NCBI GenBank assembly: GCA_964533715.1
Contig: CAZHNI010000002.1
Span: 46,496-110,495, forward strand
DNA: 64,000 bases
From: an uncultured Gammaproteobacteria bacterium
GTDB taxonomy: Bacteria; Patescibacteriota; Patescibacteriia; Magasanikbacterales; GWA2-37-8
Direction: 5' to 3'
The translations under genes and the position numbers were made by a program. The notes under the pieces were generated by a model that was not told the origin of the DNA, made no database searches, and saw nothing but the letters and a program-made list of their open reading frames with translations. How positions within the stretch are numbered: position 1 is the stretch's first letter; each line of letters begins with the position of its first letter. Shown piece after piece: positions 1-56,044 of this stretch.

Positions 1-163
1 ACAGGAAGGTCGCGATGACCAGAGAAAAATACTTTAAATCCTTAAAAAGTAAAATTGCTTTAAAAAATTTTATAAAAAATAATGCTAAAGTTGGTTAGAG
101 TCCCGACCTGTCGGGATTTACACCGAGGGGGTCGAGGGTTCGAATCCCTTGGCGTGCACGCCA
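1..163 (+). ncRNA. tRNA-like 3' domain ending in CCA (T-arm GGTTCGAATCC). Possibly the 3' portion of tmRNA (ssrA) or an atypical tRNA; the 5' partner strand is not found in the window.
   Basis: The canonical T-loop GGTTCGAATCC lies at 137-147 within a 5-7 bp T-stem (gaggg/ccctt), followed by a 7-nt strand and discriminator, and then CCA at 161-163. A D-loop-like AGTTGGTTAGAG is at 89-100. No standard 7-nt anticodon loop and no 5' acceptor strand could be folded. An intrinsic terminator follows immediately. Confidence 0.35.
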
Positions 164-167
164 TTTG

Positions 168-192
168 AAACAGAGTAAAACCTCTGTTTTTT
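168..192 (+). terminator. Rho-independent terminator (stem AAACAGAG / CTCTGTTT followed by a T-run)
   Basis: Perfect 8-bp inverted repeat with a 6-nt loop, followed by TTTTTT, directly after the tRNA-like CCA end. Confidence 0.6.
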
Positions 193-275
193 GTTGGGTA
201 AGTACATTACATTGACTGAAAAAATCAAGTCTGTTAGGATGGGCCTACACCAGCCATCCCGGCTAGGAGGTGCAC

Positions 276-1121
276 ATGTCGGCAAGAAGCTTCGTGCGAA
301 TGCTGAAAGCGCAGTGGGTGCTGCGGAAGTTCGTCTGCGTCGGGCTCGATCCCGATCCGAGCAAGATCCCCGGCTACACCGAGCAGGCGGGGACCATGGC
401 GGTCCGCGGGTTCCTCGAGGAGATCATCCTGAGCACCCACGACCTCGTGGGCGCCTACAAGCCGAACCTGGCGTTCTTCGAGCAGTTCGGCCCCGAGGGT
501 CTCCAGCTTCTGGTCGAGATCTGTCAGCACATCCGGTCGGTGTGCCCGCAGGTTCCCATCATCCTCGACGCCAAGCGCGGTGACATCGGGAACACCAACG
601 AGGGGTATGCCCGCTTCCTGTTCGATCGGTGCTGCGGCGACGCGGTCACCGTCCACCCGTACCTGGGGCAGGAGGCGCTCGCGCCGTTCCTCGCCCGCAA
701 GGACAAGGGCGTCTTTGTCCTCTGCCGGACCTCGAACCCAGGCGCGGGCGAGTTCCAGGATTTTCTCGGTCCGGACGGCACGCCGCTGTACCTGCGCGTC
801 GCCAGGAACGTGGCCACGAGCTGGAACGCGAACAACAACTGCGGCCTGGTCACCGGCGCCACCTATCCCATCGAGATCGCGGCGGTGCGCGAGGTAGCGC
901 CGAACCTGCCGCTCCTCATCCCGGGCGTCGGCAAGCAGGGCGGCGATCTGGAGTCGGCCGTGAAGGCGGCCCTGGCCGCCGACGGCGAGGGCAACTTCCT
1001 GGTCAACGCCTCGCGCGACATTCTGTACGCCTCGAAGGGCGACGACTACGCCCGGGCGGCACGGGCTGCCACGCTGCGGCTCCACGGCGAGATCATCCGG
1101 CACCTCGGGCTCACGGACTGA
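276..1121 (+). CDS. pyrF: Orotidine 5'-phosphate decarboxylase, type 2 (long, actinobacterial-like form)
   Basis: Motifs GLDPDP, KPNLAFFE, ILDAKRGDIGNT, VTVHPYLG, VFVLCRTSNP and LIPGVGKQGG line up with type-2 OMP decarboxylases. AGGAGG sits 5 nt upstream of the ATG at 276 (the listed ORF starts at an in-frame GTG at 270). The gene is markedly GC-rich compared with its flanks. Confidence 0.85.
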   Translation: MSARSFVRMLKAQWVLRKFVCVGLDPDPSKIPGYTEQAGTMAVRGFLEEIILSTHDLVGAYKPNLAFFEQFGPEGLQLLVEICQHIRSVCPQVPIILDAKRGDIGNTNEGYARFLFDRCCGDAVTVHPYLGQEALAPFLARKDKGVFVLCRTSNPGAGEFQDFLGPDGTPLYLRVARNVATSWNANNNCGLVTGATYPIEIAAVREVAPNLPLLIPGVGKQGGDLESAVKAALAADGEGNFLVNASRDILYASKGDDYARAARAATLRLHGEIIRHLGLTD

Positions 1122-1180
1122 TTCACCCCCGTTCTTCCCGCGGCGCGCGCCGTACCTACGAATTCGTCCCATCATCGATT

Positions 1181-1253
1181 CAGTGGTGGCGGGGCGATCG
1201 CAAGGTCCCCCGCCACTGTTATGTCTACAAAACAAAAGTGGGCATAACAGTGG
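1181..1253. repeat. Two overlapping GC-rich hairpins after pyrF: GTGGCGGGG...CCCCCGCCAC, and the 11-bp inverted repeat CCACTGTTATG...CATAACAGTGG
   Basis: Inverted repeats read directly from the sequence. The second one resembles the ACTGTYAT termini of the palindromic elements at 5207 and 22173. Confidence 0.35.
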
Positions 1254-1271
1254 GGATCTTGTGAAAATGAA

Positions 1272-1310
1272 ACCACCCCGATTTATTTCGGAGTGGTTTT
1301 TAATTTTTTT
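1272..1310. terminator. Bidirectional terminator-like hairpin (ACCACCCCGA / TCGGAGTGGT) with T-runs on the + side and an A-run on the other
   Basis: 10-bp stem with 1 mismatch and a 6-nt loop, followed by TTTTTAATTTTTTT. It lies between convergent genes (pyrF on + and the surface protein on -). Confidence 0.45.
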
Positions 1311-1365
1311 GGTGTGACGTCTTATAACCAAATAATGGTAAGGTGAAGATTTTTTTTGTGATTTC

Positions 1366-2937
1366 CTAAATTTTTATTAATCGTCTAATCAACCATGTCC
1401 CACCACCGATAATTACTACTCCTAGAGCAACCGCAATTGGTATTGTCGACGATCTGGACTGAGATATATTTTGTTTGAATATAACAGTGCTTGTAACGGT
1501 AGAAAACGGTTCCGTGCTGTTGCCGGCATAAGCGAGAAGTTTCAACAAATTCTCACCGTTCTCAAGCGTAAGTGTTTTTTTATATGTTCCATCTGTATTA
1601 ACAGCCAACTCAATTTTTTCACCGTTGAAGTTAAGAAATACCTGGGCATTAGGATTTGTGGACGTTCCGGAAATAACAAACTTATCGTTGGTGGTTTTAA
1701 CAGTCTGGCCAGAAGACAGGTTGCTAGTAAAAGAGGGTGCCATTGCAATGGTAATTTTCTCCCCTTCTTTCACATATTTTGTAATTGCGCTAGATTTAAC
1801 TGTAACGCTCTTTGCCCCCTCCTTTGTGAGAGCAACAGTATATTCATCCTTTTGGAGTGCACGACCATTTAAGGTAACCGGTGAATCGACAGTAAGTGTC
1901 TTGGCTGTATCGTAGAACGTGCAGTTAACGTCGGTTTTAAACAGTGCCCAGAATTTCCACTCAAACCAGACGTAGTAATAATCCAGGTGAGTCATGTTGT
2001 CGAGGTTTTTGAAGGTGTCGGCAGCAGTCTTGCTGGTCAAATTGGCCTGTCCTAAAAATGTAAAGTACATGAAGTTAGCGCGATCCAGGGAAAAATTTTT
2101 GACTCGGGCAGGATCGGTGCGTTTTAAATCCGTTGATTTTGAACCGGGAAAATAGTAATAGTTGTTGATCTGCACCTGGGTGATGGACGTAATAGCAGTT
2201 TGTTGGATAGCAACGACGGTGTTTTGTGTGTTTACTTGTTGAGGAGACTCTTTAATAACACTCGGAAACGCACATGAACCATTATCATGGGTGGCGTTTG
2301 GATCGTAATTAGTCGCGGCACGATCGGTGCATCCATACACTACGTTGGTGGTGGGGGTAATTACTGCTTTTGCAAACGTACAGGATCCATCGTCATTCGT
2401 CGCGGCGGCGTTATAATTGGTGGCGGTTCTATTGGTACAGCCATATACTACTGTGGGGCTCGTAACCGTTGTTGCTTTGGGGAGCACGCACGAGCCATCG
2501 TCTTGGGTTGCTTTTGGGTTGTAGTTAGAAGCGCGGTAATCGGTGCAACCTGTCACAACCGGATGGTTAATGGTAAAAATACCCGACAAATCTTCAACAC
2601 TTCCTTCACCTGTTTGACCGCCTATGAGGTCGATATAGAATTTAGTGTTAGCATTGTTGCTCATGTTAATTTTCCAAACGTATGATCCTGTGTTCGGTAT
2701 GTGAAATGCAATCCAGTCTAAGCAACTGGGGCAGGTTTTATACCCAATGGTAACAGTATCAATGTTTGGCGAAGAATCCCATTTTATAGTTACGGTATCC
2801 CCATCATTGTACACTTCACCGCCTGTGGGGTTAGTGAGTTTAACATATCCGGTCATGACTGCCTCACTACTCTCGGCACCTATGGTCGTAAACAGCACAA
2901 GACAGACGAAAAAGAGGAGAGTTTTAAAATAGCGCAT
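1366..2937 (-). CDS. Secreted, C-terminally membrane-anchored surface protein with three tandem ~37-aa Cys-containing repeats
   Basis: N-terminal signal peptide (MRYFKTLLFFVCLVLFTTIGA). Three repeats of the form VVxGCTDxxAxNYNxxATxDDGSC. C-terminal hydrophobic helix IPIAVALGVVIIGGGTWLI followed by RRLIKI. Confidence 0.7.
   Translation of the reverse strand: MRYFKTLLFFVCLVLFTTIGAESSEAVMTGYVKLTNPTGGEVYNDGDTVTIKWDSSPNIDTVTIGYKTCPSCLDWIAFHIPNTGSYVWKINMSNNANTKFYIDLIGGQTGEGSVEDLSGIFTINHPVVTGCTDYRASNYNPKATQDDGSCVLPKATTVTSPTVVYGCTNRTATNYNAAATNDDGSCTFAKAVITPTTNVVYGCTDRAATNYDPNATHDNGSCAFPSVIKESPQQVNTQNTVVAIQQTAITSITQVQINNYYYFPGSKSTDLKRTDPARVKNFSLDRANFMYFTFLGQANLTSKTAADTFKNLDNMTHLDYYYVWFEWKFWALFKTDVNCTFYDTAKTLTVDSPVTLNGRALQKDEYTVALTKEGAKSVTVKSSAITKYVKEGEKITIAMAPSFTSNLSSGQTVKTTNDKFVISGTSTNPNAQVFLNFNGEKIELAVNTDGTYKKTLTLENGENLLKLLAYAGNSTEPFSTVTSTVIFKQNISQSRSSTIPIAVALGVVIIGGGTWLIRRLIKI
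2263..2564 (-). repeat. Three tandem in-frame coding repeats (~111 bp each) inside the surface-protein gene
   Basis: Protein repeats at residues ~126-152, 163-189 and 199-225. The opposite-strand ORF 2287-2685 shows the same periodicity. Confidence 0.7.
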
Positions 2938-3036
2938 AGATTTGGTTACAAAATTGATATTTTAAAGATGTTGGGAACATACCACATATTGCTTGGCTTG
3001 GCAATAAATAAATAAGATTATTTTTATATAAATTGA

Positions 3037-3065
3037 TTGACTTATTGACGAAAAAAGAGTTTAAT
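3037..3065 (+). promoter_or_regulatory. Candidate sigma70-type promoter (TTGACT - 17 nt - TTTAAT) for the gene at 3097
   Basis: Hexamers and spacing read from the sequence, about 30 nt upstream of the ORF start in an AT-rich divergent intergenic region. Confidence 0.35.
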
Positions 3066-3096
3066 TTGTTTACTTATTAAGTAGCAATTTTAAACT

Positions 3097-4242
3097 ATGA
3101 CAGGATCAGGCAATAATAGGCATGGTGGTATTATAACAGAAGTTTTACAAAGGGAGACAGAAAGAACCCAACCCGACATGGCTCACAAAAAAATTGAGGA
3201 AGCAAAGAAACTTTTTATATCCATGGGTTTAGAGGTGAGCGGCGGTGGGTTTATTTCAAATAATATTTCGCCAAAAAAATTGGCAGAACTTCACGAGTGG
3301 CACGAATCGACGAGAGGGAAGGGAGGTATTGATATGCCAACAGAAGACTCTTTTTATGAAAAAGTTTATCTCGCCGTTTCTTTGTGGCCCCAAAGGGAAG
3401 ATACAAAAATAAACTATTTGTTAGGAAAGGGAGTTGGGGTGGAGGTTGCACTGAGGGGAACAGTTGTTGGAAGAGAAAAAAGGAAAATTGTTTTTCCTTA
3501 TCGGACACATTCCGACTTTGAATTGTACGGAGTTGACTATGAAAATGAAACATCTGAACAAACACCAAGTCTAGCTAAGCCGGTTTATACTCCAGGATTT
3601 AAGCAGGTATTTGGAGCCCAGGAGTATTATCCGCCAACCAAAACAAAAGGTCTTAAAGATATACCTCCTGGGCTACTGTATAAGACTGCCGAATCAGTAG
3701 ATTTAGGTGGAGTGCGAGTGCTTGTTCCAAAATTAGAATTACTATTTTTAGATAAATGGATGGCTCAAGAAACAACACCTAGAGCAGAAGGCAATGACGC
3801 TGAATTATTGGCCAGGCAATATAGTCTCGACAAGGATGAATTGCACGAATATTTGCAAAGATTTGTGGTTGAACCACGAATAAAATCAGTAGAGGCTGAC
3901 GGGAAAGTTTTATCAACCAGACATCTAAGCAATATAGAAAGATATCTGATAATCAAAATGAAAAGTATTGAAGAACCAACAAAAGAAAATATGGTTGCTT
4001 CTCTAAATACAGAAATAGCGCAATATTTATCTATTGATCCAAATGTAAGCATATCTGGGATTAGCGGAAAGTTGTGGATTCCTTTGTCGGCAGACCAAAT
4101 TGATGAGGGTGGTAAGTTAATTGATCAGTCTTATATAGATGAAGTAAATCGTAAAGTTGAAACTCAAACCAAAGTAAAAATAGAAAAAATCAATAATTTT
4201 CACACTGATCTAGATAAATTCTTGAGTCGTGTTGCTGATTGA
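3097..4242 (+). CDS. Hypothetical protein (381 aa; no recognisable domain; start could be the internal Met at 3178)
   Basis: Long ORF with native low-GC composition. No family-level motif recognised. Confidence 0.6.
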   Translation: MTGSGNNRHGGIITEVLQRETERTQPDMAHKKIEEAKKLFISMGLEVSGGGFISNNISPKKLAELHEWHESTRGKGGIDMPTEDSFYEKVYLAVSLWPQREDTKINYLLGKGVGVEVALRGTVVGREKRKIVFPYRTHSDFELYGVDYENETSEQTPSLAKPVYTPGFKQVFGAQEYYPPTKTKGLKDIPPGLLYKTAESVDLGGVRVLVPKLELLFLDKWMAQETTPRAEGNDAELLARQYSLDKDELHEYLQRFVVEPRIKSVEADGKVLSTRHLSNIERYLIIKMKSIEEPTKENMVASLNTEIAQYLSIDPNVSISGISGKLWIPLSADQIDEGGKLIDQSYIDEVNRKVETQTKVKIEKINNFHTDLDKFLSRVAD

Positions 4243-4450
4243 AGCTCATTTTATTTCTTTATACAACCCAGTGAGTTTGTTAAAAACTAATTCCGGAGTA
4301 CAAGTTACTAAAATCAACCCATCTTGATTTCATTAACTTTTAAAAAACAACCCTATCACTTTTATCACAATGTATTATGGTAAAAGTGACAGATCGGGTG
4401 GTTTTAATTCCCGAGCTATCATCGGGAGTTGATGCGGACGCCTCGGTGAC

Positions 4451-5059
4451 TTACTTGGGTGAGTGGACGGAGTGGTAGAGGGGGTGGCCGTAGACCGGAT
4501 AGCTGCCGGTCCCTTCGGCGGAGCAGGACGCGTAGCCGCCCCACTCGATGTAGAGGGCCGCGCCTGGGGGTGCCTCGTTCCAGTTCGTGCACACCACCTG
4601 GAAAGGAATCAGCTTGTCCTTTTCCAGGTGAAGCGGCGTGCTGCCTGGCATCCAGTAGCCAGAGTTGGGGCCGATTTGCTCGCCGATGGTGTCCCCCCCG
4701 CCGTAGCCAATTTCTCCGGTGGGGACTCCGTTCAGCCAGACCTCGATCCGGGGCACCCAGTTGCTGCGTTCATAGCCGAGCCACAGGGACACACCCTCAA
4801 GGTTGATCGGCTGGCAGTCGGCGCTGTCAGCGGCGTGCATGGCGCCGTTGATCAGCACCGCGACCGACTGAGACGCCGGCACCTCATCCGGCGGAGGGGT
4901 GGCCGGCTCAAAGACCGGGAAGCCCGGCACGATCATGTACTTGGCCGTCAGGGTGTACCCCGGGCGGGTTTCGGACAGCACCGGACCGCACTGTGGCTCC
5001 GGCCGATCGGCACCGCAACTAGCCGCGAGCAGCAGAGACAAAACAACCAGTTGGCGCAT
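4451..5059 (-). CDS. High-GC lipoprotein of unknown function
   Basis: Lipobox LLLAASCGA. RBS GAAAGGAAG 6 nt upstream of the ATG. GC-rich codon usage unlike the flanks. The antisense ORFs 4459-4806 and 4463-5110 are judged spurious. Confidence 0.7.
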   Translation of the reverse strand: MRQLVVLSLLLAASCGADRPEPQCGPVLSETRPGYTLTAKYMIVPGFPVFEPATPPPDEVPASQSVAVLINGAMHAADSADCQPINLEGVSLWLGYERSNWVPRIEVWLNGVPTGEIGYGGGDTIGEQIGPNSGYWMPGSTPLHLEKDKLIPFQVVCTNWNEAPPGAALYIEWGGYASCSAEGTGSYPVYGHPLYHSVHSPK

Positions 5060-5206
5060 CGGACACTTCCTTTCTTGTTTTTTAAGGAGCTACCCACTTC
5101 AGCCCCATAGAGCACGCTCTCCTTTGAGATGCTCAGGTGAGGCTTAAATGTTAGTATGTGATGTGTATCAAAGCATATTATTATAAGATGCGTCAATTGG
5201 CAAACC

Positions 5207-5375
5207 CCTTAAGCTTTGAATTACGAAACACCCATTTTGTCATCCTGAACCCCGCTCAAGCGGGGTGAAGGATCTCTGTCCGGTTGTTAACTTGGCCAAC
5301 GTTGGCCAATTAAGACAGAGATTCTTCGCTCTGCTCAGAATGACAGTTGAGTTTCGTAACTCAAAGCCCTTAAGG
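5207..5375. repeat. ~170-bp imperfect palindromic (MITE-like) element, copy A
   Basis: Outer inverted repeat CCTTAAGCTTTGAATTACGAAAC / GTTTCGTAACTCAAAGCCCTTAAGG. Inner termini TTGTCATCCTGA / TCAGAATGACAGTT. Internal hairpin CCCCGCTCAAGCGGGG. Central perfect palindrome TTGGCCAACGTTGGCCAA. Homologous to the element at 22173-22330. Confidence 0.55.
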
Positions 5376-5421
5376 GTCATAATAATAGCGTTTATCTAAA
5401 AAATATGCTAAAATATTACAC

Positions 5422-6618
5422 ATGTATAATCAGCCAGTTGCGCCAGAGAAAGTAGACCGCCCGGTGGTGCTCCACCAGGGCGTGTATAAACAAACCGCCA
5501 CTACCGCCGAGGCGGTGTTTATGATTACCGGCATGACCATTGGAGCCGGTATTTTGGGTATACCGTATGTTGTTGCCAAAGTGGGAATTTTAATTGGGCT
5601 CACGTATATAGTAATTCTTGGTCTTATCATGTTATTTTTAAATATCATGATAAGCGAAGTAGCGGGGCGGACCGGGGAGAATTTGCAGTTGCCAGGTTTA
5701 GCGGGCAAGTATTTAGGCCCGCGAGCTAAAGAAATTTTGTCTATTTCTACTGTGGTAAGTGCGGTGGGCGCGCTGCTTGCTTATATTATTGGTGAGGGCA
5801 AAGCTTTGAGCGCGCTTCTTGGAGGCAATTCTGATGTGTGGAGTGTTATTTTTTGGTCGGTAGGGAGTGGTCTTATATTAGCTGGCCTCCACCGCGTTAA
5901 AGTCGCAGAAAAAATTTTAAGTGCTTTGGTTATTGGCTGTATTACTTTTTTGTCGCTGTACTTATTACCACATATTTCGGTAAGTAATTTGACTCATTTT
6001 GACCCCAAAAATATTTTATTACCGTATGGCGTTATTTTATTTGCGCTCCACGGCACACCGGCTATCGCCGAAGCGCGGGCACTACTTAGTAATGATCGCC
6101 GCCGTTTTCGTAAAGCCGTTATTATTGGCACCTTAATTCCAATTGCGGTCTATATTCTATTTGCTCTTAGCGTGGTAGGGGCGAGTGGTCTTACTACTAC
6201 CGAAGTGGCCTCGGTCGGCCTCGGAGCCCGATTTGGTGGTTTTGTGTTGATTTTAGCCAATGTGTTTGCAGTGTTTGCTATGAGCACCGGTTTTATGGGG
6301 CTTGGTACGGCGCTGAAGGAAGTATTGGTGTGGGACCACAAACTGCCCAAATGGCTCGCCCAAAGCTTGGTCATTGGTATTCCTATTTTGTTATTTTTGG
6401 CGGGCTTTAATAATTTTGTTAATATTTTAGGTATTATCGGTGGCGTTTTTATAGGGCTTGAAGCAATTATAATGATTATGGTATATTGGCAGGCACGAAC
6501 CACCGGTCTATTTGCCCGTTCCCGGTCGGGCGCTCACCATATGTGGTTTCTGAGTGTGCCGCTTCTGGTGGTTTTTATGTTTATAACCATGCATAGTATT
6601 TTTAAATTATTAAATTAA
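5422..6618 (+). CDS. Amino-acid permease (about 11 TM helices; aromatic amino-acid / HAAAP-type transporter family-like)
   Basis: Polytopic membrane protein of 398 aa. The N-terminal GMTIGAGILGIPY motif is typical of Trp/Tyr-permease-like transporters. Confidence 0.55.
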   Translation: MYNQPVAPEKVDRPVVLHQGVYKQTATTAEAVFMITGMTIGAGILGIPYVVAKVGILIGLTYIVILGLIMLFLNIMISEVAGRTGENLQLPGLAGKYLGPRAKEILSISTVVSAVGALLAYIIGEGKALSALLGGNSDVWSVIFWSVGSGLILAGLHRVKVAEKILSALVIGCITFLSLYLLPHISVSNLTHFDPKNILLPYGVILFALHGTPAIAEARALLSNDRRRFRKAVIIGTLIPIAVYILFALSVVGASGLTTTEVASVGLGARFGGFVLILANVFAVFAMSTGFMGLGTALKEVLVWDHKLPKWLAQSLVIGIPILLFLAGFNNFVNILGIIGGVFIGLEAIIMIMVYWQARTTGLFARSRSGAHHMWFLSVPLLVVFMFITMHSIFKLLN

Positions 6619-6626
6619 AGTGGTGT

Positions 6627-6690
6627 TCGTCCCGATTTCGCTTCGGCGAAATCGAGGATCCTCGATTTTCCTCCACAGGAAAATCGGGAT
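6627..6690 (+). promoter_or_regulatory. Structured element in the metK 5' leader with mutually exclusive hairpins
   Basis: Three elements read directly: CGATTTCGC-TTCG-GCGAAATCG (9 bp, UUCG tetraloop), the palindrome GAGGATCCTC, and CGATTTTCC-tccacag-GGAAAATCG. An alternative long-range pairing CCCGATTT / AAATCGGG is also possible. GGTGTTCG is repeated at 6623 and 6703. Confidence 0.35.
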
Positions 6691-6798
6691 TGTTATTCAG
6701 TTGATGGTGTTCGTTGTTGGTTGGTTTACCATTTCGTGGTCGATCGAGCGGGTTACTTATCAACAACGTCCTTCTATCCCAAATTAAATATTCATATT

Positions 6799-7953
6799 AT
6801 GTCAAATTCATATTTATTTACTTCGGAGTCCGTTACGGAAGGTCACCCAGATAAAATTTGTGATCAAATTTCCGATGCGGTGCTCGACAGTCTTTTGGAT
6901 CAAGACCCCAATTCACATGTGGCAGTGGAATGTTTTACTACTACCGGGCTTGTAATTGTGGGTGGTGAGGTAACCACCAAAGGGTATGTGGATGTGCAAA
7001 AAATTACCCGTGCAGTTTTGGATGATATTGGGTATACCGACCCAGCGTATGGCATTGATGCTGAACACGCCGGTATTTTAGTTTCAATCCACGAACAGTC
7101 ACCTGATATTGCCCAGGGGGTAAACAGAACCAGTGTGGAAGATCAGGGCGCGGGCGACCAGGGGCTTATGTTTGGTTACGCCTGTAACGAAACTCCAGAA
7201 TTAATGCCACTCCCAATAACTTTGGCACATCGTTTGGCCGAGCAGCTGGCTAACGTGCGTAAAAGTGGCGAATTGCCATATTTACGTCCAGACGGCAAGA
7301 CACAAGTGGCGGTTGTGTATGAAAATAATAAACCGGTTAGACTTGAGAATGTGGTAGTGGCGGCGCAGCATCATGACACGGTAACGCTTGAACAAATTAG
7401 AAAAGATATTATTGAGCATGTTATAGAGCCAATATGCAGCCATTATATTGACGACAAAACCCAGTTTTTTATAAATATGACCGGAAAATTTGTGGTGGGT
7501 GGGCCGCAAGGCGATACTGGTTTAACTGGCCGTAAAATTATTGTGGATACCTATGGCGGCATGGGTCGGCACGGCGGTGGTTGTTTTTCTGGTAAAGATC
7601 CAAGTAAAGTGGATCGTTCTGGTGCCTATATGGCTCGCTATGTTGCCAAAAATATTGTGGCCGCCGGGTTGGCCGAGCGCTGTGAAGTACAAGTCTCTTA
7701 TGTAATTGGTCGCGCTGAGCCTACCAGTATTAACGTTAATTCTTTTGGCACATCAAAAGCGGGCGACGACAAGCTAATTGAGGCAGTTAAAAAAGTTTTT
7801 GATTTTCGTCCCGGTAAAATTATTGAAGCGTTGGATTTGCTTCGTCCCATATATCGAGCCACGGCGGCATATGGACATTTTGGTAGAGCGGAATTTCCGT
7901 GGGAAAAAATAGATAAAGTAGAAGCTCTTAAAGCACAGGTTGGAAACAAATAA
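6799..7953 (+). CDS. metK: S-adenosylmethionine synthetase
   Basis: Motifs [30 protein letters not shown] and [19 protein letters not shown]. The real start is the ATG at 6799 ([19 protein letters not shown]); the listed 5' extension from 6721 is non-coding leader. Confidence 0.92.
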
Positions 7954-19692: not shown

Positions 19693-19785
19693 GGGATGTT
19701 CAAATTGCGTCTTTTTGGGCATAATTTGAATGTTAAAACTGTTCTTTTACAATCTATTTGAAGCAATACAAAATGTAATAACGTT

Positions 19786-19903
19786 CCTTGGCACGAAGAG
19801 AGGATAGAAACTAGAAATTGGAAATTGGAAATTGGGGATTTTTAAATCGTCCCGAGTTTCTTATTTCTAGTTTTTAATTTCCAATTTTTCTCCGTGCCAA
19901 GGG
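19786..19903. repeat. Complex repeat/hairpin region: inverted repeat CCTTGGCACG...CGTGCCAAGG enclosing three tandem GAAATTG units plus interleaved complementary blocks
   Basis: AAACTAGAAAT pairs with ATTTCTAGTTT, and AATTGGAAATT pairs with AATTTCCAATT. The block order is not compatible with a single simple hairpin. Followed by the hairpins GGGAC-taaggtt-GTCCC and TCCGGC-tctaa-GCCGGA, the latter abutting the RBS GGAGGAGG. Confidence 0.5.
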
Positions 19904-19960
19904 ACTAAGGTTGTCCCAAGGCTTGTCCCCATTTCCGGCTCTAAGCCGGAGGAGGTTCCC

Positions 19961-20746
19961 ATGTACCAGCAGATCATCCGCATCGCCGCCCTCGTCTTCG
20001 CGCTTTTCGTCCTCAACTCCGCCCCGGCCTCGGCCAAGAAGCCGGCCCCGGTCGCCGAGATCGAGAGTCCCGACCTCTCCCTCGCGAAGGTCCGTTTCAA
20101 GACCGGCGAAAAGAAGTACGAGGCCGAGGACTACGCCGGCGCCCTCAAGGAGTTCGAGGGCGCGAAGTTCCTGCAGCCCAAGCGCATCGAGCTCGATTAC
20201 AACATCGCGCGCTGCCACGATCGGCTGGGCAACTGGGAGCAGGCGGTGAAGTTCTACACCGCCTACGCCGACACGAAGCCGAAGGACGAGAAGGAGGTGA
20301 GGGAGCGTATCGCGATCCTCAAGGAGAGGCTCGCGGCGAAGCCCCTCACCACCCCCGCCGTTGCCGGCACCCAGCCCGCTCCGCCCGCCCTGGCTCCCGC
20401 CCCCGCGACGCGGACTGACGGTGGCGTCACGCCCGCGGCTCCCGCCACCCCCTACGCCGGCAGCAAGCCGAACCTCAACCTGCCGGCCCCCGCCCCGGCC
20501 CCGCCCGCCGCGACTGTCCCGCTCGTTCCGACGACCCAGCCCGTGGCCCCCACGTCGACCAGCCCGCCCTTCTACAAGAAGTGGTGGTTCTGGACGGCCG
20601 TGGGCGCCGCCGCGCTCGTCGCGGTCGGCGTCGGCATCGGCGTCGGAGCTTCGCGGGAAACCACCTATTCCCAGACCCGCCCGGACCTGGGGACCGTTCA
20701 CTTCAACCTCAACCTCTTTCCCACCCCCGACACGGGGGGGAGGTGA
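19961..20746 (+). CDS. High-GC secreted TPR-like / proline-rich protein with a C-terminal TM helix
   Basis: RBS GGAGGAGG. Signal peptide IAALVFALFVLNSAPASA. Long Pro/Ala-rich linker. TM helix WWFWTAVGAAALVAVGVGIGVG. GC-rich. Confidence 0.65.
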   Translation: MYQQIIRIAALVFALFVLNSAPASAKKPAPVAEIESPDLSLAKVRFKTGEKKYEAEDYAGALKEFEGAKFLQPKRIELDYNIARCHDRLGNWEQAVKFYTAYADTKPKDEKEVRERIAILKERLAAKPLTTPAVAGTQPAPPALAPAPATRTDGGVTPAAPATPYAGSKPNLNLPAPAPAPPAATVPLVPTTQPVAPTSTSPPFYKKWWFWTAVGAAALVAVGVGIGVGASRETTYSQTRPDLGTVHFNLNLFPTPDTGGR

Positions 20747-20749
20747 CCC

Positions 20750-22006
20750 ATGCGCCAGACCCTCTTCGCCTTGATGGTCGCCGCCCTCCTCGCGGGGTGC
20801 GGCGCCGACATGCGCCCGTGCCCCAAGGGCGCGGTCCGTATCCACATGCAGTTCGACCAGGTCGTCCGTGATCGTGGGTACGCCGTCACGGCGACCCTCA
20901 CGATCGATGGGGTGTCGGTCCAGACCCCCTTCGACCCCAGCATCAACGGGGATGCGGAAGGGAATATGGACTTCGTCTTCACCCATGGCTACCCGGCGAT
21001 CGGTGCAGAGGCGCAGATCGACCTGGTCGTGCGTCGCAACAGCGACATCGTCGGCGAGGGGCACGCAACCTTCGAGATCACCGAAGGGTGCACCTACGTC
21101 GTCGTCCCGGTGACCGCTTCGGTGGCACCTGAGGACGGCGGCACTGATCTCGCGCGGCTCGACGGCGGCGCTGACCTGTCTCGGCCGGACCTCGCCAGTG
21201 GCGACGGTTCGGTCGACCAGGCCACCCCGCCTGACCTCACGACGCCCCCCGACCTGACGCGCCCCCCCGGCGACCTCACCGTTCCGCCCCCTGACCTCAC
21301 CGTCGCGGGGGACATGGCGCGGCTCCCGGACGCGGCCCTCCCCGACCTGACCACCGCCCCGCCTGACCTCACGACGCCCCCCGACCTGACGCGCCCCCCG
21401 GACCTCGTGGCCACGCCCGATCTGGTTCTCGCCTGCAATCTCGACGCCGACTGTGGCAGCAAGACCGGTGGTGCCTGCAAGAACGGCACCTGCCAGCCCC
21501 CTGCATGCACCGACGGCCTCAAGAACCAGGACGAGACTGACGTCGACTGCGGCGGCGCCAAGTGCGTGCCGTGCGTGCCCACCAAGGCGTGTATCAAGGA
21601 CGCCGATTGCATCATTCCGTGGTGCAACCCCAGCACCAAGAGGTGCGGCAACATGGTCGGTACGGTCTTCATCGGATCGGAGGGCGAGAAAATTGACCTG
21701 AACAACCCGGCGAACAACCCGCCGCCCGTGTGGAGCTGCCTCGACGCCTGCGCCAAGAAGTTCGGTGCCGGTACCTACCGCTGCTCCACCGTGCTCGGCT
21801 CCGTCAACGGGCTGAGCTGGTCGCAGTGCTACGGCGACGGGCAGCACTGCTCCCCTGGTGGAGAGGTGTCCGAGAGCTACAAACTCGGCACCACCTACTA
21901 CTGCCCAGGGGCGCCGGGCTGCGCCTGCTCGGCGTGGGTCGACTACCAGAACAGCGGTGGTTCGGCCTGCGCCAACGCGGGCGCCAAGTCCTACTGCTTC
22001 AAGTAG
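20750..22006 (+). CDS. High-GC lipoprotein with PPDLT(T/R)P repeats and a Cys-rich C-terminal domain
   Basis: Lipobox LLAGCGA. RBS GGGAGG overlaps the upstream stop. Repeated TPPDLTTPPDLTRPP. About 30 Cys in the C-terminal 190 aa (CxxGxCxxxxC patterns). The antisense ORF 19874-22150 is rejected. Confidence 0.7.
   Translation: MRQTLFALMVAALLAGCGADMRPCPKGAVRIHMQFDQVVRDRGYAVTATLTIDGVSVQTPFDPSINGDAEGNMDFVFTHGYPAIGAEAQIDLVVRRNSDIVGEGHATFEITEGCTYVVVPVTASVAPEDGGTDLARLDGGADLSRPDLASGDGSVDQATPPDLTTPPDLTRPPGDLTVPPPDLTVAGDMARLPDAALPDLTTAPPDLTTPPDLTRPPDLVATPDLVLACNLDADCGSKTGGACKNGTCQPPACTDGLKNQDETDVDCGGAKCVPCVPTKACIKDADCIIPWCNPSTKRCGNMVGTVFIGSEGEKIDLNNPANNPPPVWSCLDACAKKFGAGTYRCSTVLGSVNGLSWSQCYGDGQHCSPGGEVSESYKLGTTYYCPGAPGCACSAWVDYQNSGGSACANAGAKSYCFK
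21226..21398 (+). repeat. Two copies of a ~43-bp direct repeat (CCCCGCCTGACCTCACGACGCCCCCCGACCTGACGCGCCCCCC) encoding the PPDLTTPPDLTRPP motif
   Basis: Identical DNA blocks at 21226-21268 and 21356-21398. Confidence 0.6.
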
Positions 22007-22011
22007 ACCCC

Positions 22012-22057
22012 CGCCAGAGGGCGGAGCCCACTTCGGTGGTGCTCCGCCCTCGGCGGA
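22012..22057 (+). other. GC-rich hairpin (GCCAGAGGGCGGAGC...GCTCCGCCCTCGGCGG) at the 3' end of the high-GC islet
   Basis: Near-perfect 16-bp inverted repeat with no T-run after it. Confidence 0.4.
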
Positions 22058-22140
22058 TCTAACCTCGCGGTTGCCTACGGCGACCGCTTCTCTCTTGTAC
22101 TCAAGATTAGTTAAATCGTGGTTACAAGTATAGAAAAAAT

Positions 22141-22172
22141 AAAATCCCAAGGCACATGTCCGGGATTTTTTT
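22141..22172 (+). terminator. Terminator-like hairpin AAATCCC...GGGATTT followed by TTTTTTT
   Basis: 7-bp stem with an imperfect GGCACATGTCC interior, plus a T-run. Confidence 0.45.
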
Positions 22173-22330
22173 ATTAAGTTTGGTTAATAACTGTCATTCC
22201 GACTGAGGAGCTCGCGCGACGAGTGGAGGAATCCCTTGGTTCGTTAAATGGCGATTTTGGTAAAAGGGATTTCTCGACTAGGCCTCCGGCCTCGCTCGAA
22301 ATGACAGTTTTTCATTGAGCTATTTTTGTT
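22173..22330. repeat. ~150-bp imperfect palindromic (MITE-like) element, copy B, homologous to 5207-5375
   Basis: Termini AACTGTCATTCCGACTGAGG / CTCGCTCGAAATGACAGTT, inner GGAATCCCTT / AAGGGATTTC, internal hairpin CTCGcgcgaCGAG. Shares TGTCATYC, GTGRAGGA-TC and GAAATGACAGTT with copy A. The left flank ATTAAGTTTGG resembles copy A's CTTAAGCTTTG. Confidence 0.55.
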
Positions 22331-54998: not shown

Positions 54999-55057
54999 AG
55001 TGCTCGAGGGGGGTGGAAACCTCAGGGGGATGTCGAGCGGCATCGTGAGGGGGGGCT

Positions 55058-55894
55058 CTAGAAGATCTGGAGGTCGAGGAGGGCGCGGAGCGCCAGGGCG
55101 CGGCACATGTTGCCGCCCTTGGTCTGCATCCGCACCACCCGGTTCAGCGTCTGGAAGGCGCCGGCCGGGTTGTCGAGTCGGAGCTGGGCCTTGGCCGCGA
55201 AGAGGAGCGCGGTCCCGATGGCGTCCCCGTACTCGCCGGTGAGCGCGGTCGCCTCGGCGATCTCGATGGCGCTGGTGAAGTCGCCGGCGTCGTAGAGCCT
55301 GGCCACCTGGGCCATCATCCAGAACGGGCGGAACAGGTCGTGGTAGCGGTTGTCGGCCGCCTCCATCGCCTGCATCGCCGCCAGGTACGACGAGCGGCCC
55401 TGGTACTGGTTGATGTTGGCGAGCATGCTCGCCTCGACGACGTGGGCCGGGATGTTCCCCTCGACCCACTCGAGCGCACGAGGGGACTCGTCGCCCGCGA
55501 GCGCCTGCTGCGCCACTGCGGCGGCGGCGGCGAGCCGGTTGAAGGTGTGGCCCAGCTCGTCGCCCCTGACCACGGCGTTGTTGAACGCCGAGACCGTGGC
55601 GAGGAACGCCTCGATCGCGTAGCTGGTGTCGGTCTCGCGCGTTGCCGGGGGCGAGCGGTACTGCTCGGCGGCCAGCAGGTGCAGGTTGATCAGCGCACCG
55701 TAGCCGCCGCCGTCGCGCGTCATGATGCGGGCGTTGTAGCCGGCGCGGAGCGCGAGCGCCGTGCGCTCGACCCCGTCCGGCAGCTCCGCGATCTCCGCCA
55801 TGACCTCACGCAGGAGGACGGCGGCTTCCCCGAATCCCTCGTTGGTCTGGCGCAGCGCGTACACCCGGTCGATTTTTTTTCCGATTTCTTCCAT
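55058..55894 (-). CDS. High-GC all-helical hypothetical protein (278 aa)
   Basis: RBS AAGGAGGG 8 nt upstream of the ATG at 55894 (MEEIGKKIDRVY). GC-rich throughout. The plus-strand antisense ORFs 55340-55939 and 55000-55242 are judged spurious. Confidence 0.6.
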   Translation of the reverse strand: MEEIGKKIDRVYALRQTNEGFGEAAVLLREVMAEIAELPDGVERTALALRAGYNARIMTRDGGGYGALINLHLLAAEQYRSPPATRETDTSYAIEAFLATVSAFNNAVVRGDELGHTFNRLAAAAAVAQQALAGDESPRALEWVEGNIPAHVVEASMLANINQYQGRSSYLAAMQAMEAADNRYHDLFRPFWMMAQVARLYDAGDFTSAIEIAEATALTGEYGDAIGTALLFAAKAQLRLDNPAGAFQTLNRVVRMQTKGGNMCRALALRALLDLQIF

Positions 55895-56044
55895 GTGCTT
55901 GCCCTCCTTGTGGGCGTTTTGGGTCAAAATTTTGCTTAGCAAAAATTAAAGCACCCCTCATTTTATCATATAATAAGGTTTTTGTCAATTCGCGATCATC
56001 GATTCGTTTAAAATTTTTAACCCGCTAGTTTTTCTTGATAAATT

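Follow-up and report, generated by a model that had tools for sequence, protein, structure and literature searches.

A broken tRNA-Val(UAC) copy with a preserved 3' half, next to a high-GC pyrF block, in a Magasanikbacteria-like CPR bacterium

Introduction

The tRNA-like domain of tmRNA (ssrA) is characterized by the alanine identity pair G3·U70 in its acceptor stem and by the closing helix of a pseudoknot-rich body that precedes the T-arm. It lacks the anticodon loop, the variable loop and the D-arm of a tRNA-Val. When a genomic island integrates into a tRNA gene, one end of the island is described as carrying a regenerated gene and the other end a displaced 3' fragment of it (PMC4383910). 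Patescibacteria are reported to gain nucleotide-biosynthesis functions by horizontal gene transfer (HGT) (PMC12455944).

Here we analyzed a 64-kb stretch of DNA, hereafter the window, whose first bases contain a tRNA-like 3' end followed by pyrF in high-GC DNA. An initial annotation had interpreted this arrangement as a possible tmRNA at what may be an integration junction. Judged by sequence comparison, positions 84-158 of the window are instead a broken, non-functional copy of tRNA-Val(UAC) in a Magasanikbacteria-like bacterium of the candidate phyla radiation (CPR).

Results

The element at the window start derives from tRNA-Val(UAC)

A scan for relatives of the metK gene in the window led to two loci, L001 (Candidatus Magasanikiibacteriota) and L002 (Patescibacteria), in each of which metK is 77% identical. 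L001 carries a tRNA-Val(UAC) gene 1.7 kb upstream of metK, and in an alignment to this gene window positions 117-158 correspond to the first anticodon-loop base through the discriminator (UUUACAC, CGAGG, GGGUC, the T-arm, GGCGUGC and A). A pattern scan of metagenome contigs found 13 further intact copies of the tRNA, in loci of 32-49% GC. Compared with the intact tRNA-Val(UAC) of the 14 related CPR loci, 117-158 has the same base at 40 of 42 positions (tRNA positions 32-73). This 42-nt match is not due to chance (blastn E = 1.5e-14; covariance model (CM) E = 2.4e-6). The T-loop 11-mer alone is weak evidence, with 1.1 matches expected at ≤1 mismatch. The 5' half of the gene, GCACGCCTAGCTCAGTTGGTTAGAGCACCTCG, was nearly invariant in all 14 intact genes, and at the place of GCACGCCTA in this half the window has AAAAATAAT.

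A family CM built from ten intact tRNA-Val(UAC) relatives gave a single hit in the 64-kb window, at 30.9 bits; intact genes score 107.7-109.8 bits. The same model flagged the acceptor and D-stem pairs of the element as unpaired or non-standard. ARAGORN found no tRNA or tmRNA gene in the entire 64 kb, and Rfam at the gathering threshold gave no tRNA or tmRNA hit in the window. As a control, intact relatives reached 69.1 bits with the Rfam tRNA model in the same tool. The 74-nt tRNA-Val is identical in many CPR genomes. An exact 30-mer of the element had no match in the genome or metagenome contig collections, and window positions 1-116 and 159-400 had no similarity to the flanks of tRNA-Val in the 14 relatives.

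The window begins with AT-rich DNA. The following features were identified around the element, all on the plus strand:

3-97, plus: open frame (ending in REKYFKSLKSKIALKNFIKNNAKVG and a stop) that runs off the left window edge and stops at the TAG of the D-loop remnant; a candidate gene
84-101, plus: D-arm remnant of tRNA-Val, GCTAAAGTTGGTTAGAGT (intact genes: GCTCAGTTGGTTAGAGC), placed by alignment, with a 12-nt exact match at 89-100
98-119, plus: 9-bp hairpin with a CCUG loop (GAGUCCCGA/UCGGGAUUU), folding at -12.1 kcal/mol, z = -3.8
117-158, plus: intact 3' half of tRNA-Val(UAC), made up of anticodon loop UUUACAC, 3' stem strand CGAGG, variable loop GGGUC, T-arm, 3' acceptor strand GGCGUGC and discriminator A
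134-150, plus: T-arm (GAGGG UUCGAAU CCCUU), intact, containing GGTTCGAATCC at 137-147
151-163, plus: palindrome GGCGTGCACGCC followed by A, that is the 3' acceptor strand, CG, then CCA; predicted mini-hairpin of -6.3 kcal/mol
167-192, plus: terminator-like 9-bp hairpin ending in a U-run, -9.6 kcal/mol, z = -3.8

The 3' half differs from the intact genes solely at T-stem positions 49 and 50 (G49 A50 vs A49 G50), and both pairs are kept. The D-arm remnant has 3 possible pairs. The hairpin at 98-119 stands where the 14 intact genes have position 26 and the 5' strand of the anticodon stem (ACCUCG): the window has CCCGACCTGTCGGGA in place of ACCTCG, and these bases pair with adjoining ones to form the 9-bp hairpin. 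With the intact strand CCUCG changed to CCCGACCUGUCGGGA, the anticodon stem is not closed. Reading the sequence of 1-83, we found nothing able to pair with GGCGUGC in a 7-bp acceptor stem. The open frame at 3-97, which may not be a real gene, shares bases with the D-arm remnant.

The CCA at 161-163 does not sit in its tRNA place but 2 nt further on: the discriminator A is position 158, and tRNA positions 74-76 would read CGC. CCA is encoded straight after the discriminator in five relatives, and the window has an inserted CG that also makes the GGCGTGCACGCC palindrome. This palindrome looks like the fusion of a 3' strand to a 5' strand and gave the idea of a split or permuted tRNA. The idea was rejected, as the palindrome is not followed by a D-arm and two extra bases in front of an encoded CCA are a simpler explanation. 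A hairpin with a T-run directly 3' of the tRNA is also present in relatives; a simple consensus terminator scan made no call at 167-192.

The minimum free energy fold of the element consists of two hairpins and no cloverleaf (-33 kcal/mol, z = -3.1). The element is derived from tRNA-Val and cannot serve as a tRNA, as the predicted RNA is unable to form a cloverleaf or be charged. As an object it is a new instance of a well-known type, a routine broken copy of a tRNA gene.

The tmRNA interpretation

Several of the observations behind the initial annotation were confirmed. The canonical T-arm is there, with GGTTCGAATCC at 137-147 inside 134-150, and so is the terminator, a 9-bp hairpin with a U-run at 167-192 (-9.6 kcal/mol), for which the consensus scan gave no call. 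The 5' acceptor strand is missing, as had been noted, from the 83 nt upstream. The switch to high GC is at about 241 and is followed by the pyrF ATG at 276; the distance from the terminator hairpin to this switch is about 45 nt, not the ~30 nt that had been given. Two observations held in part. The CCA trinucleotide is present at 161-163, but its tRNA register is off by 2 nt. The 7-nt anticodon loop that had been reported absent exists as the loop sequence UUUACAC at 117-123, and it is its 5' stem strand that is gone.

On this basis the element had been taken for the 3' tRNA-like domain of tmRNA (ssrA), with the 5' part upstream of the window and pyrF as the cargo of an island at its 3' end. 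The T-arm, A73 and U70 are present as in a tmRNA, and the 5' strand of the acceptor is not in view. However, the 17 nt before the T-arm (UUUACAC-CGAGG-GGGUC) match tRNA-Val(UAC) positions 32-48 base for base and are preceded by the D-arm remnant. In the intact relatives U70 pairs with A3 and not with G3 (GCACGCC/GGCGUGC). The best Rfam tmRNA match at E ≤ 10 on 1-400 scored 6.6 bits, against a gathering score of 47, and covered the T-loop only. The check that the annotation had proposed, with ARAGORN and the Rfam tmRNA model, made no call in the window, beyond whose edge the 5' part of a tmRNA would lie, and under its own rule the idea fails when there is no tmRNA or tRNA hit at all. The island part of the interpretation lacks an att repeat. 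Because the element has the anticodon loop, variable loop and D-arm of tRNA-Val, and because the acceptor of the family has A3-U70, we consider the tmRNA reading refuted, with practically no probability left to it.

The broken copy lies at a variable tRNA-Val locus

The order permease, metK, p579, p112, p185 and p456 is common to the window, L001, L002, L086 and L089. An intact tRNA-Val is located directly upstream of the permease in L001, L086 and L089, at ~215-260, 85 and ~500 nt respectively. In L083 the distance is ~900 nt and the permease is a more remote homologue (40% identity); the comparison there covers the tRNA-Val and this permease homologue. Judged by gene order, the broken copy occupies the ancestral tRNA-Val site, upstream of the permease and metK. 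The region between them contains the following features:

159-5421, no strand: variable region from the tRNA-Val remnant to the permease, 5.26 kb in the window and 85-900 nt in four syntenic relatives (L086, L001, L089, L083)
276-1121, plus: pyrF, high-GC, in the variable region
1366-2937, minus: p523, low-GC surface-type protein, in the variable region
3097-4242, plus: p381, low-GC, function not assigned, in the variable region
4451-5059, minus: p202, the second high-GC gene, in the variable region
5213-5367, no strand: REP-like inverted repeat, in the variable region
5422-6618, plus: permease, a conserved neighbor of tRNA-Val in relatives
6721-7953, plus: metK, a conserved neighbor of tRNA-Val in relatives

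The p381 protein had no match in Pfam, PHROGs or NCBIfam. Besides its own 100% entry it has about 90 homologues of 34-51% identity, and the few that are named belong to DPANN archaea (Altiarchaeota, Micrarchaeota and Nanoarchaeia). The relatives scattered over CPR and DPANN contigs reach at most 48% identity. Ultra-small prokaryotes seem to share p381 as an accessory gene family.

Partial tRNA-Val copies in relatives

Partial copies of tRNA-Val were also found beside the intact gene in relatives. In L001 and L090 the last 16-20 nt of the tRNA-Val, together with flank, recur 150-195 nt downstream of the intact gene. In L093/L088 and in L085 the partial copy is just upstream of the intact gene, and the copy in L093/L088 keeps positions 1-47. 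These partial copies scored 18.8-61.7 bits on the family CM. Partial tRNA-Val(UAC) copies beside intact genes, set apart from them by short inserts of 87-195 nt, were noted at these places:

L001, 8303-8480
L090, 2497-2707
L093, 1304-1461 (the same as L088)
L085, ~3790-3855

Recombination seems to recur at tRNA-Val(UAC) in this CPR clade. The inserts beside the partial copies share the motif ACGGGCAGAAG[CT]GAG or GGATTCGAACGGG. An Rfam search of the inserts beside tRNA-Val in L090 and L093 found no family. The inserts could be what is left of a small element with tRNA-Val(UAC) as its target.

A separate observation concerns the hairpin motif TCCCGA-N(4-7)-TCGGGA, which occurs twice in the window (101-116 and 4409-4427) where 0.03 occurrences would be expected by chance. 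The first occurrence lies inside the broken tRNA, the second at the edge of high-GC block 2. In L082, CCCGA-N5-TCGGGA is found ~40 nt upstream of tRNA-Val.

pyrF and its high-GC block

Downstream of the terminator-like hairpin, we identified the following features:

212-240, plus: promoter-like site TTGACT-17-TAGGAT, ending exactly at the start of the high-GC DNA
241-1218, plus: high-GC foreign block, ~68% GC against a background of ~40%, ending in a GC-rich hairpin at 1181-1218
276-1121, plus: pyrF, orotidine-5'-phosphate decarboxylase subfamily 2, with the ribosome-binding site (RBS) AGGAGG at 265-270 and GC3 of 0.91

The assignment of pyrF is based on TIGR02127 (245.4 bits vs a cut-off of 110.6; the match spans 1-260 of the 261 profile positions) and Pfam PF00215 (99 bits). 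Its GC3 of 0.91 compares with 0.28-0.44 in the native genes, and by composition pyrF is truly foreign. The closest proteins among 5.8 billion were 52-57% identical. When named, the best hits were from CPR or of Chloroflexota/Ktedonobacteria type, and two of the best came from contigs of 52-54% GC; the best database hits identified no donor. An antisense open frame at 234-1331 was discarded as a gene candidate: a search with it matched only the antisense frames of other pyrF genes, at ~40% identity.

Searches for att sites and mobility genes

The initial annotation had predicted an att-like direct repeat of the last 15-25 nt of the RNA gene at about 1120-1320. No such repeat was present there or anywhere in the 64 kb. 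A search with the terminal 15-mer of the tRNA, tolerating ≤3 mismatches, recovered just the element itself in the window. The whole tRNA searched by blastn-short found no repeat in the window; the one extra match, of 11 nt at 22229-22239 (E = 0.78), was judged to be chance. Repeat finders run over 1-7000 and around each high-GC block gave no direct or inverted repeats flanking 241-1218 or 159-5421. There were no integrase or other mobility genes among the open frames of 1-5400 (Pfam, PHROGs and NCBIfam). On this basis pyrF is not shown to be part of a classical tRNA-anchored island.

What remains of the integration junction that had been proposed is the 3' end of a tRNA gene followed by 5.26 kb of extra DNA; an att repeat and an integrase are absent from the window. 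The junction idea is half right and survives in a weakened form, as a variable, recombination-prone tRNA-Val locus with foreign DNA downstream and no att signature. The orientation of the tRNA also bears on it. As the tRNA is on the plus strand, the fragment would be the downstream end, so an island ending at it would lie upstream of the window and not over pyrF. If the fragment marks an island at all, that island would be upstream, beyond the window.

Four high-GC blocks in the window

The block with pyrF is one of four high-GC blocks, each with one or two complete genes:

~241-1218: high-GC block 1
~4440-5075: high-GC block 2
~19905-22090: high-GC block 3
~55000-55905: high-GC block 4

The four blocks have 67-71% GC and GC3 of 0.82-0.95 in a genome of ~40% GC, and they have no flanking direct or inverted repeats and no mobility genes. 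Because the three other blocks are equally foreign and lie away from any tRNA, the adjacency of pyrF and the tRNA is not evidence of entry via the tRNA site. Block 3 codes for a Cys-rich lipoprotein and a TPR protein, and their matches, all of them partial, include proteins of Nannocystis and Labilithrix (Myxococcota).

Exact look-ups showed that the native proteins and p202 are encoded on one public NCBI contig. The four blocks are present in the deposited assembly and are not peculiar to the window. The public gene calls are in the wrong frame in blocks 1, 3 and 4, at 629-1264 (plus), 19874-22150 (minus) and 55340-55939 (plus). The real genes are missing from the protein collection:

276-1121: pyrF
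19961-20746: gene in block 3
20750-22006: gene in block 3
55058-55894: gene in block 4

Some further observations were made on these blocks and their surroundings. A strong AGGAGG or GGAGG at 5-8 nt precedes four of the five block genes, and p202 has the weaker GAAAGGAAG. The native low-GC genes are mostly without a recognizable Shine-Dalgarno sequence upstream of the start. Low-GC DNA immediately upstream of block 3, at 19783-19905, holds a 56-nt imperfect inverted repeat (73% complementary) with (GAAATTG)x3. REP-like nested inverted repeats, GTCAT(C/T)C(C/T)GA…GAATGACAG, are found at 5213-5367 and ~22190-22310; both are intergenic and lie next to blocks 2 and 3.

Discussion

Origin of the broken copy

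We consider it most likely, with a probability of roughly 0.75, that the broken tRNA-Val at the ancestral site is a displaced or left-over recombination fragment, and that the pyrF block is a separate acquisition with no recognizable att site. A recombination event at the tRNA-Val gene would have left the fragment behind, with an intact copy of the gene, and possibly an inserted element, located further upstream, beyond the window edge. The pyrF block would have arrived as a separate foreign acquisition that settled in the variable region, downstream of the tRNA terminator and of a native-looking promoter. A recombination origin is preferred because conservation breaks sharply between positions 31 and 32, because tRNA-Val(UAC) is expected to be essential, and because relatives carry partial copies. 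By codon reading rules this tRNA should be essential in a 40%-GC genome, and an intact copy is therefore expected. The break points are complementary, with the partial copy of L093 keeping positions 1-47 and the window keeping 32-74. The D-arm remnant lies upstream of the crossover, which is unexpected in a displaced fragment; it fits decay in place or a tRNA-derived attP.

The remnant thus bears on an alternative in which no mobile element took part. The original tRNA-Val would have been inactivated in place by small lesions, with a functional copy elsewhere: a deletion of ~20 nt (positions 1-9 with the promoter-proximal leader), a D-loop indel, the insertion of the anticodon-stem hairpin and the 2-nt insertion before CCA. 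Several independent lesions of this kind are visible, the copy sits where, by synteny, relatives have their intact gene, and the D-arm remnant is in the right order and spacing. However, the damage is very uneven. The 42-nt 3' half has two changes, which keep their pairs, while the 5' half is largely unalignable, suggesting replacement over uniform drift, and partial copies of recombination type are common at tRNA-Val in relatives. We regard decay in place as unlikely. The perfectly kept 3' half, including the paired swap in the T-stem, could also point to a functional tRNA-like RNA, whose hairpin, T-arm and acceptor mimic would form a 3' structure on an upstream transcript or a short RNA, for example as a processing or stabilizing signal for tRNA-processing enzymes. 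The stable predicted fold (-33 kcal/mol, z = -3.1) and the retained terminator-like hairpin of its own are in line with this. But the genome and metagenome scans gave no second example of the 5' architecture, and hence no evidence from covariation or conservation, and a recent origin from a real gene explains the conservation equally well, which makes a functional RNA highly improbable.

An assembly artefact would account for both the broken tRNA and the blocks. The contig would be chimeric at the conserved tRNA, at the edges of the high-GC blocks or at both, and the combination would exist in no single genome. This is a metagenome-type contig, a 74-nt tRNA identical in many CPR genomes is a type of repeat at which assemblers can jump, and the blocks are ~30% GC apart from their surroundings. 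A jump between two intact tRNA-Val genes, however, would produce an intact gene and not a 5' half such as this one. Each high-GC block is flanked on both sides by the same low-GC genome, the gene order across block 1 matches that of relatives, and the blocks hold whole genes with RBS behind native-looking promoters. An artefact is very unlikely on these grounds; the two-sided synteny and the whole genes behind native-looking promoters favor blocks that are biological rather than chimeric.

Origin and meaning of the high-GC blocks

Returning to recombination at tRNA-Val with pyrF as a separate gain, the identification of the element as tRNA-Val corrects the tmRNA lead, and pyrF is not demonstrably the cargo of a tRNA-integrated island. 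The scattered high-GC blocks are a more interesting lead than the broken tRNA. One tentative and somewhat doubtful explanation is that a small CPR genome recently captured at least four gene-sized pieces from one or more unsampled high-GC organisms, by a route that involves no att sites, terminal repeats or mobility genes. Such a route might, for example, combine the uptake of DNA with its illegitimate recombination into intergenic sequence behind native promoters, and the slot behind the tRNA-Val terminator would be one landing place for captured DNA. A Myxococcota-like neighbor or host is a donor candidate, because block 3 has Cys-rich and TPR lipoproteins of Myxococcota type.

If read-level data confirm the blocks, they would represent an unusually clean case of recent cross-phylum gene gain in a streamlined, probably host-dependent bacterium, and could possibly hint at its partner. 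If the capture is true, pyrF would add a step of nucleotide synthesis to an organism expected to scavenge nucleotides, and the composition of the donor could indicate the physical partner of this uncultured bacterium. The wrong-frame calls in three of the four blocks make their genes, including pyrF, invisible in protein databases.

Comparison with known systems

The element shares with the tRNA-like domain of tmRNA the T-arm and the 3' acceptor strand with discriminator A. It differs in having the anticodon loop, variable loop and D-arm remnant of tRNA-Val and in giving no match to a tag frame or pseudoknot; the intact relatives have A3-U70 and not G3·U70, the element itself being without the 5' strand. 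It resembles tRNA pseudogenes in its recognizable homology to one specific tRNA, in the loss of the acceptor and anticodon stems and in being called by neither ARAGORN nor the Rfam tRNA model. Unlike such pseudogenes, the copy in the window is damaged in its 5' half alone, with hardly any change in the 3' half.

The locus can also be compared with Islander-type islands, in which tyrosine integrases use tRNA and tmRNA genes (PMC4383910). The fragment in the window extends from the anticodon loop to the 3' end and has a native downstream flank, the tRNA-Val locus is variable among relatives, and partial copies adjoin intact genes in related genomes, all as in such islands. Unlike in the islands described there, the window shows no intact partner gene, integrase or second repeat, a D-arm remnant lies upstream of the presumed crossover, and the foreign pyrF is on the wrong (downstream) side to be the cargo of an island ending at the fragment.

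Finally, the blocks can be set beside the genes and islands that Patescibacteria have gained by HGT (PMC12455944). Unlike those islands, there are here four blocks of one or two genes with ~68-71% GC in 40% GC DNA, lacking mobility genes and repeats, and three of the four have wrong-frame public calls. Like the described cases, they are genes of foreign composition in a CPR genome, and they include a gene of nucleotide metabolism.
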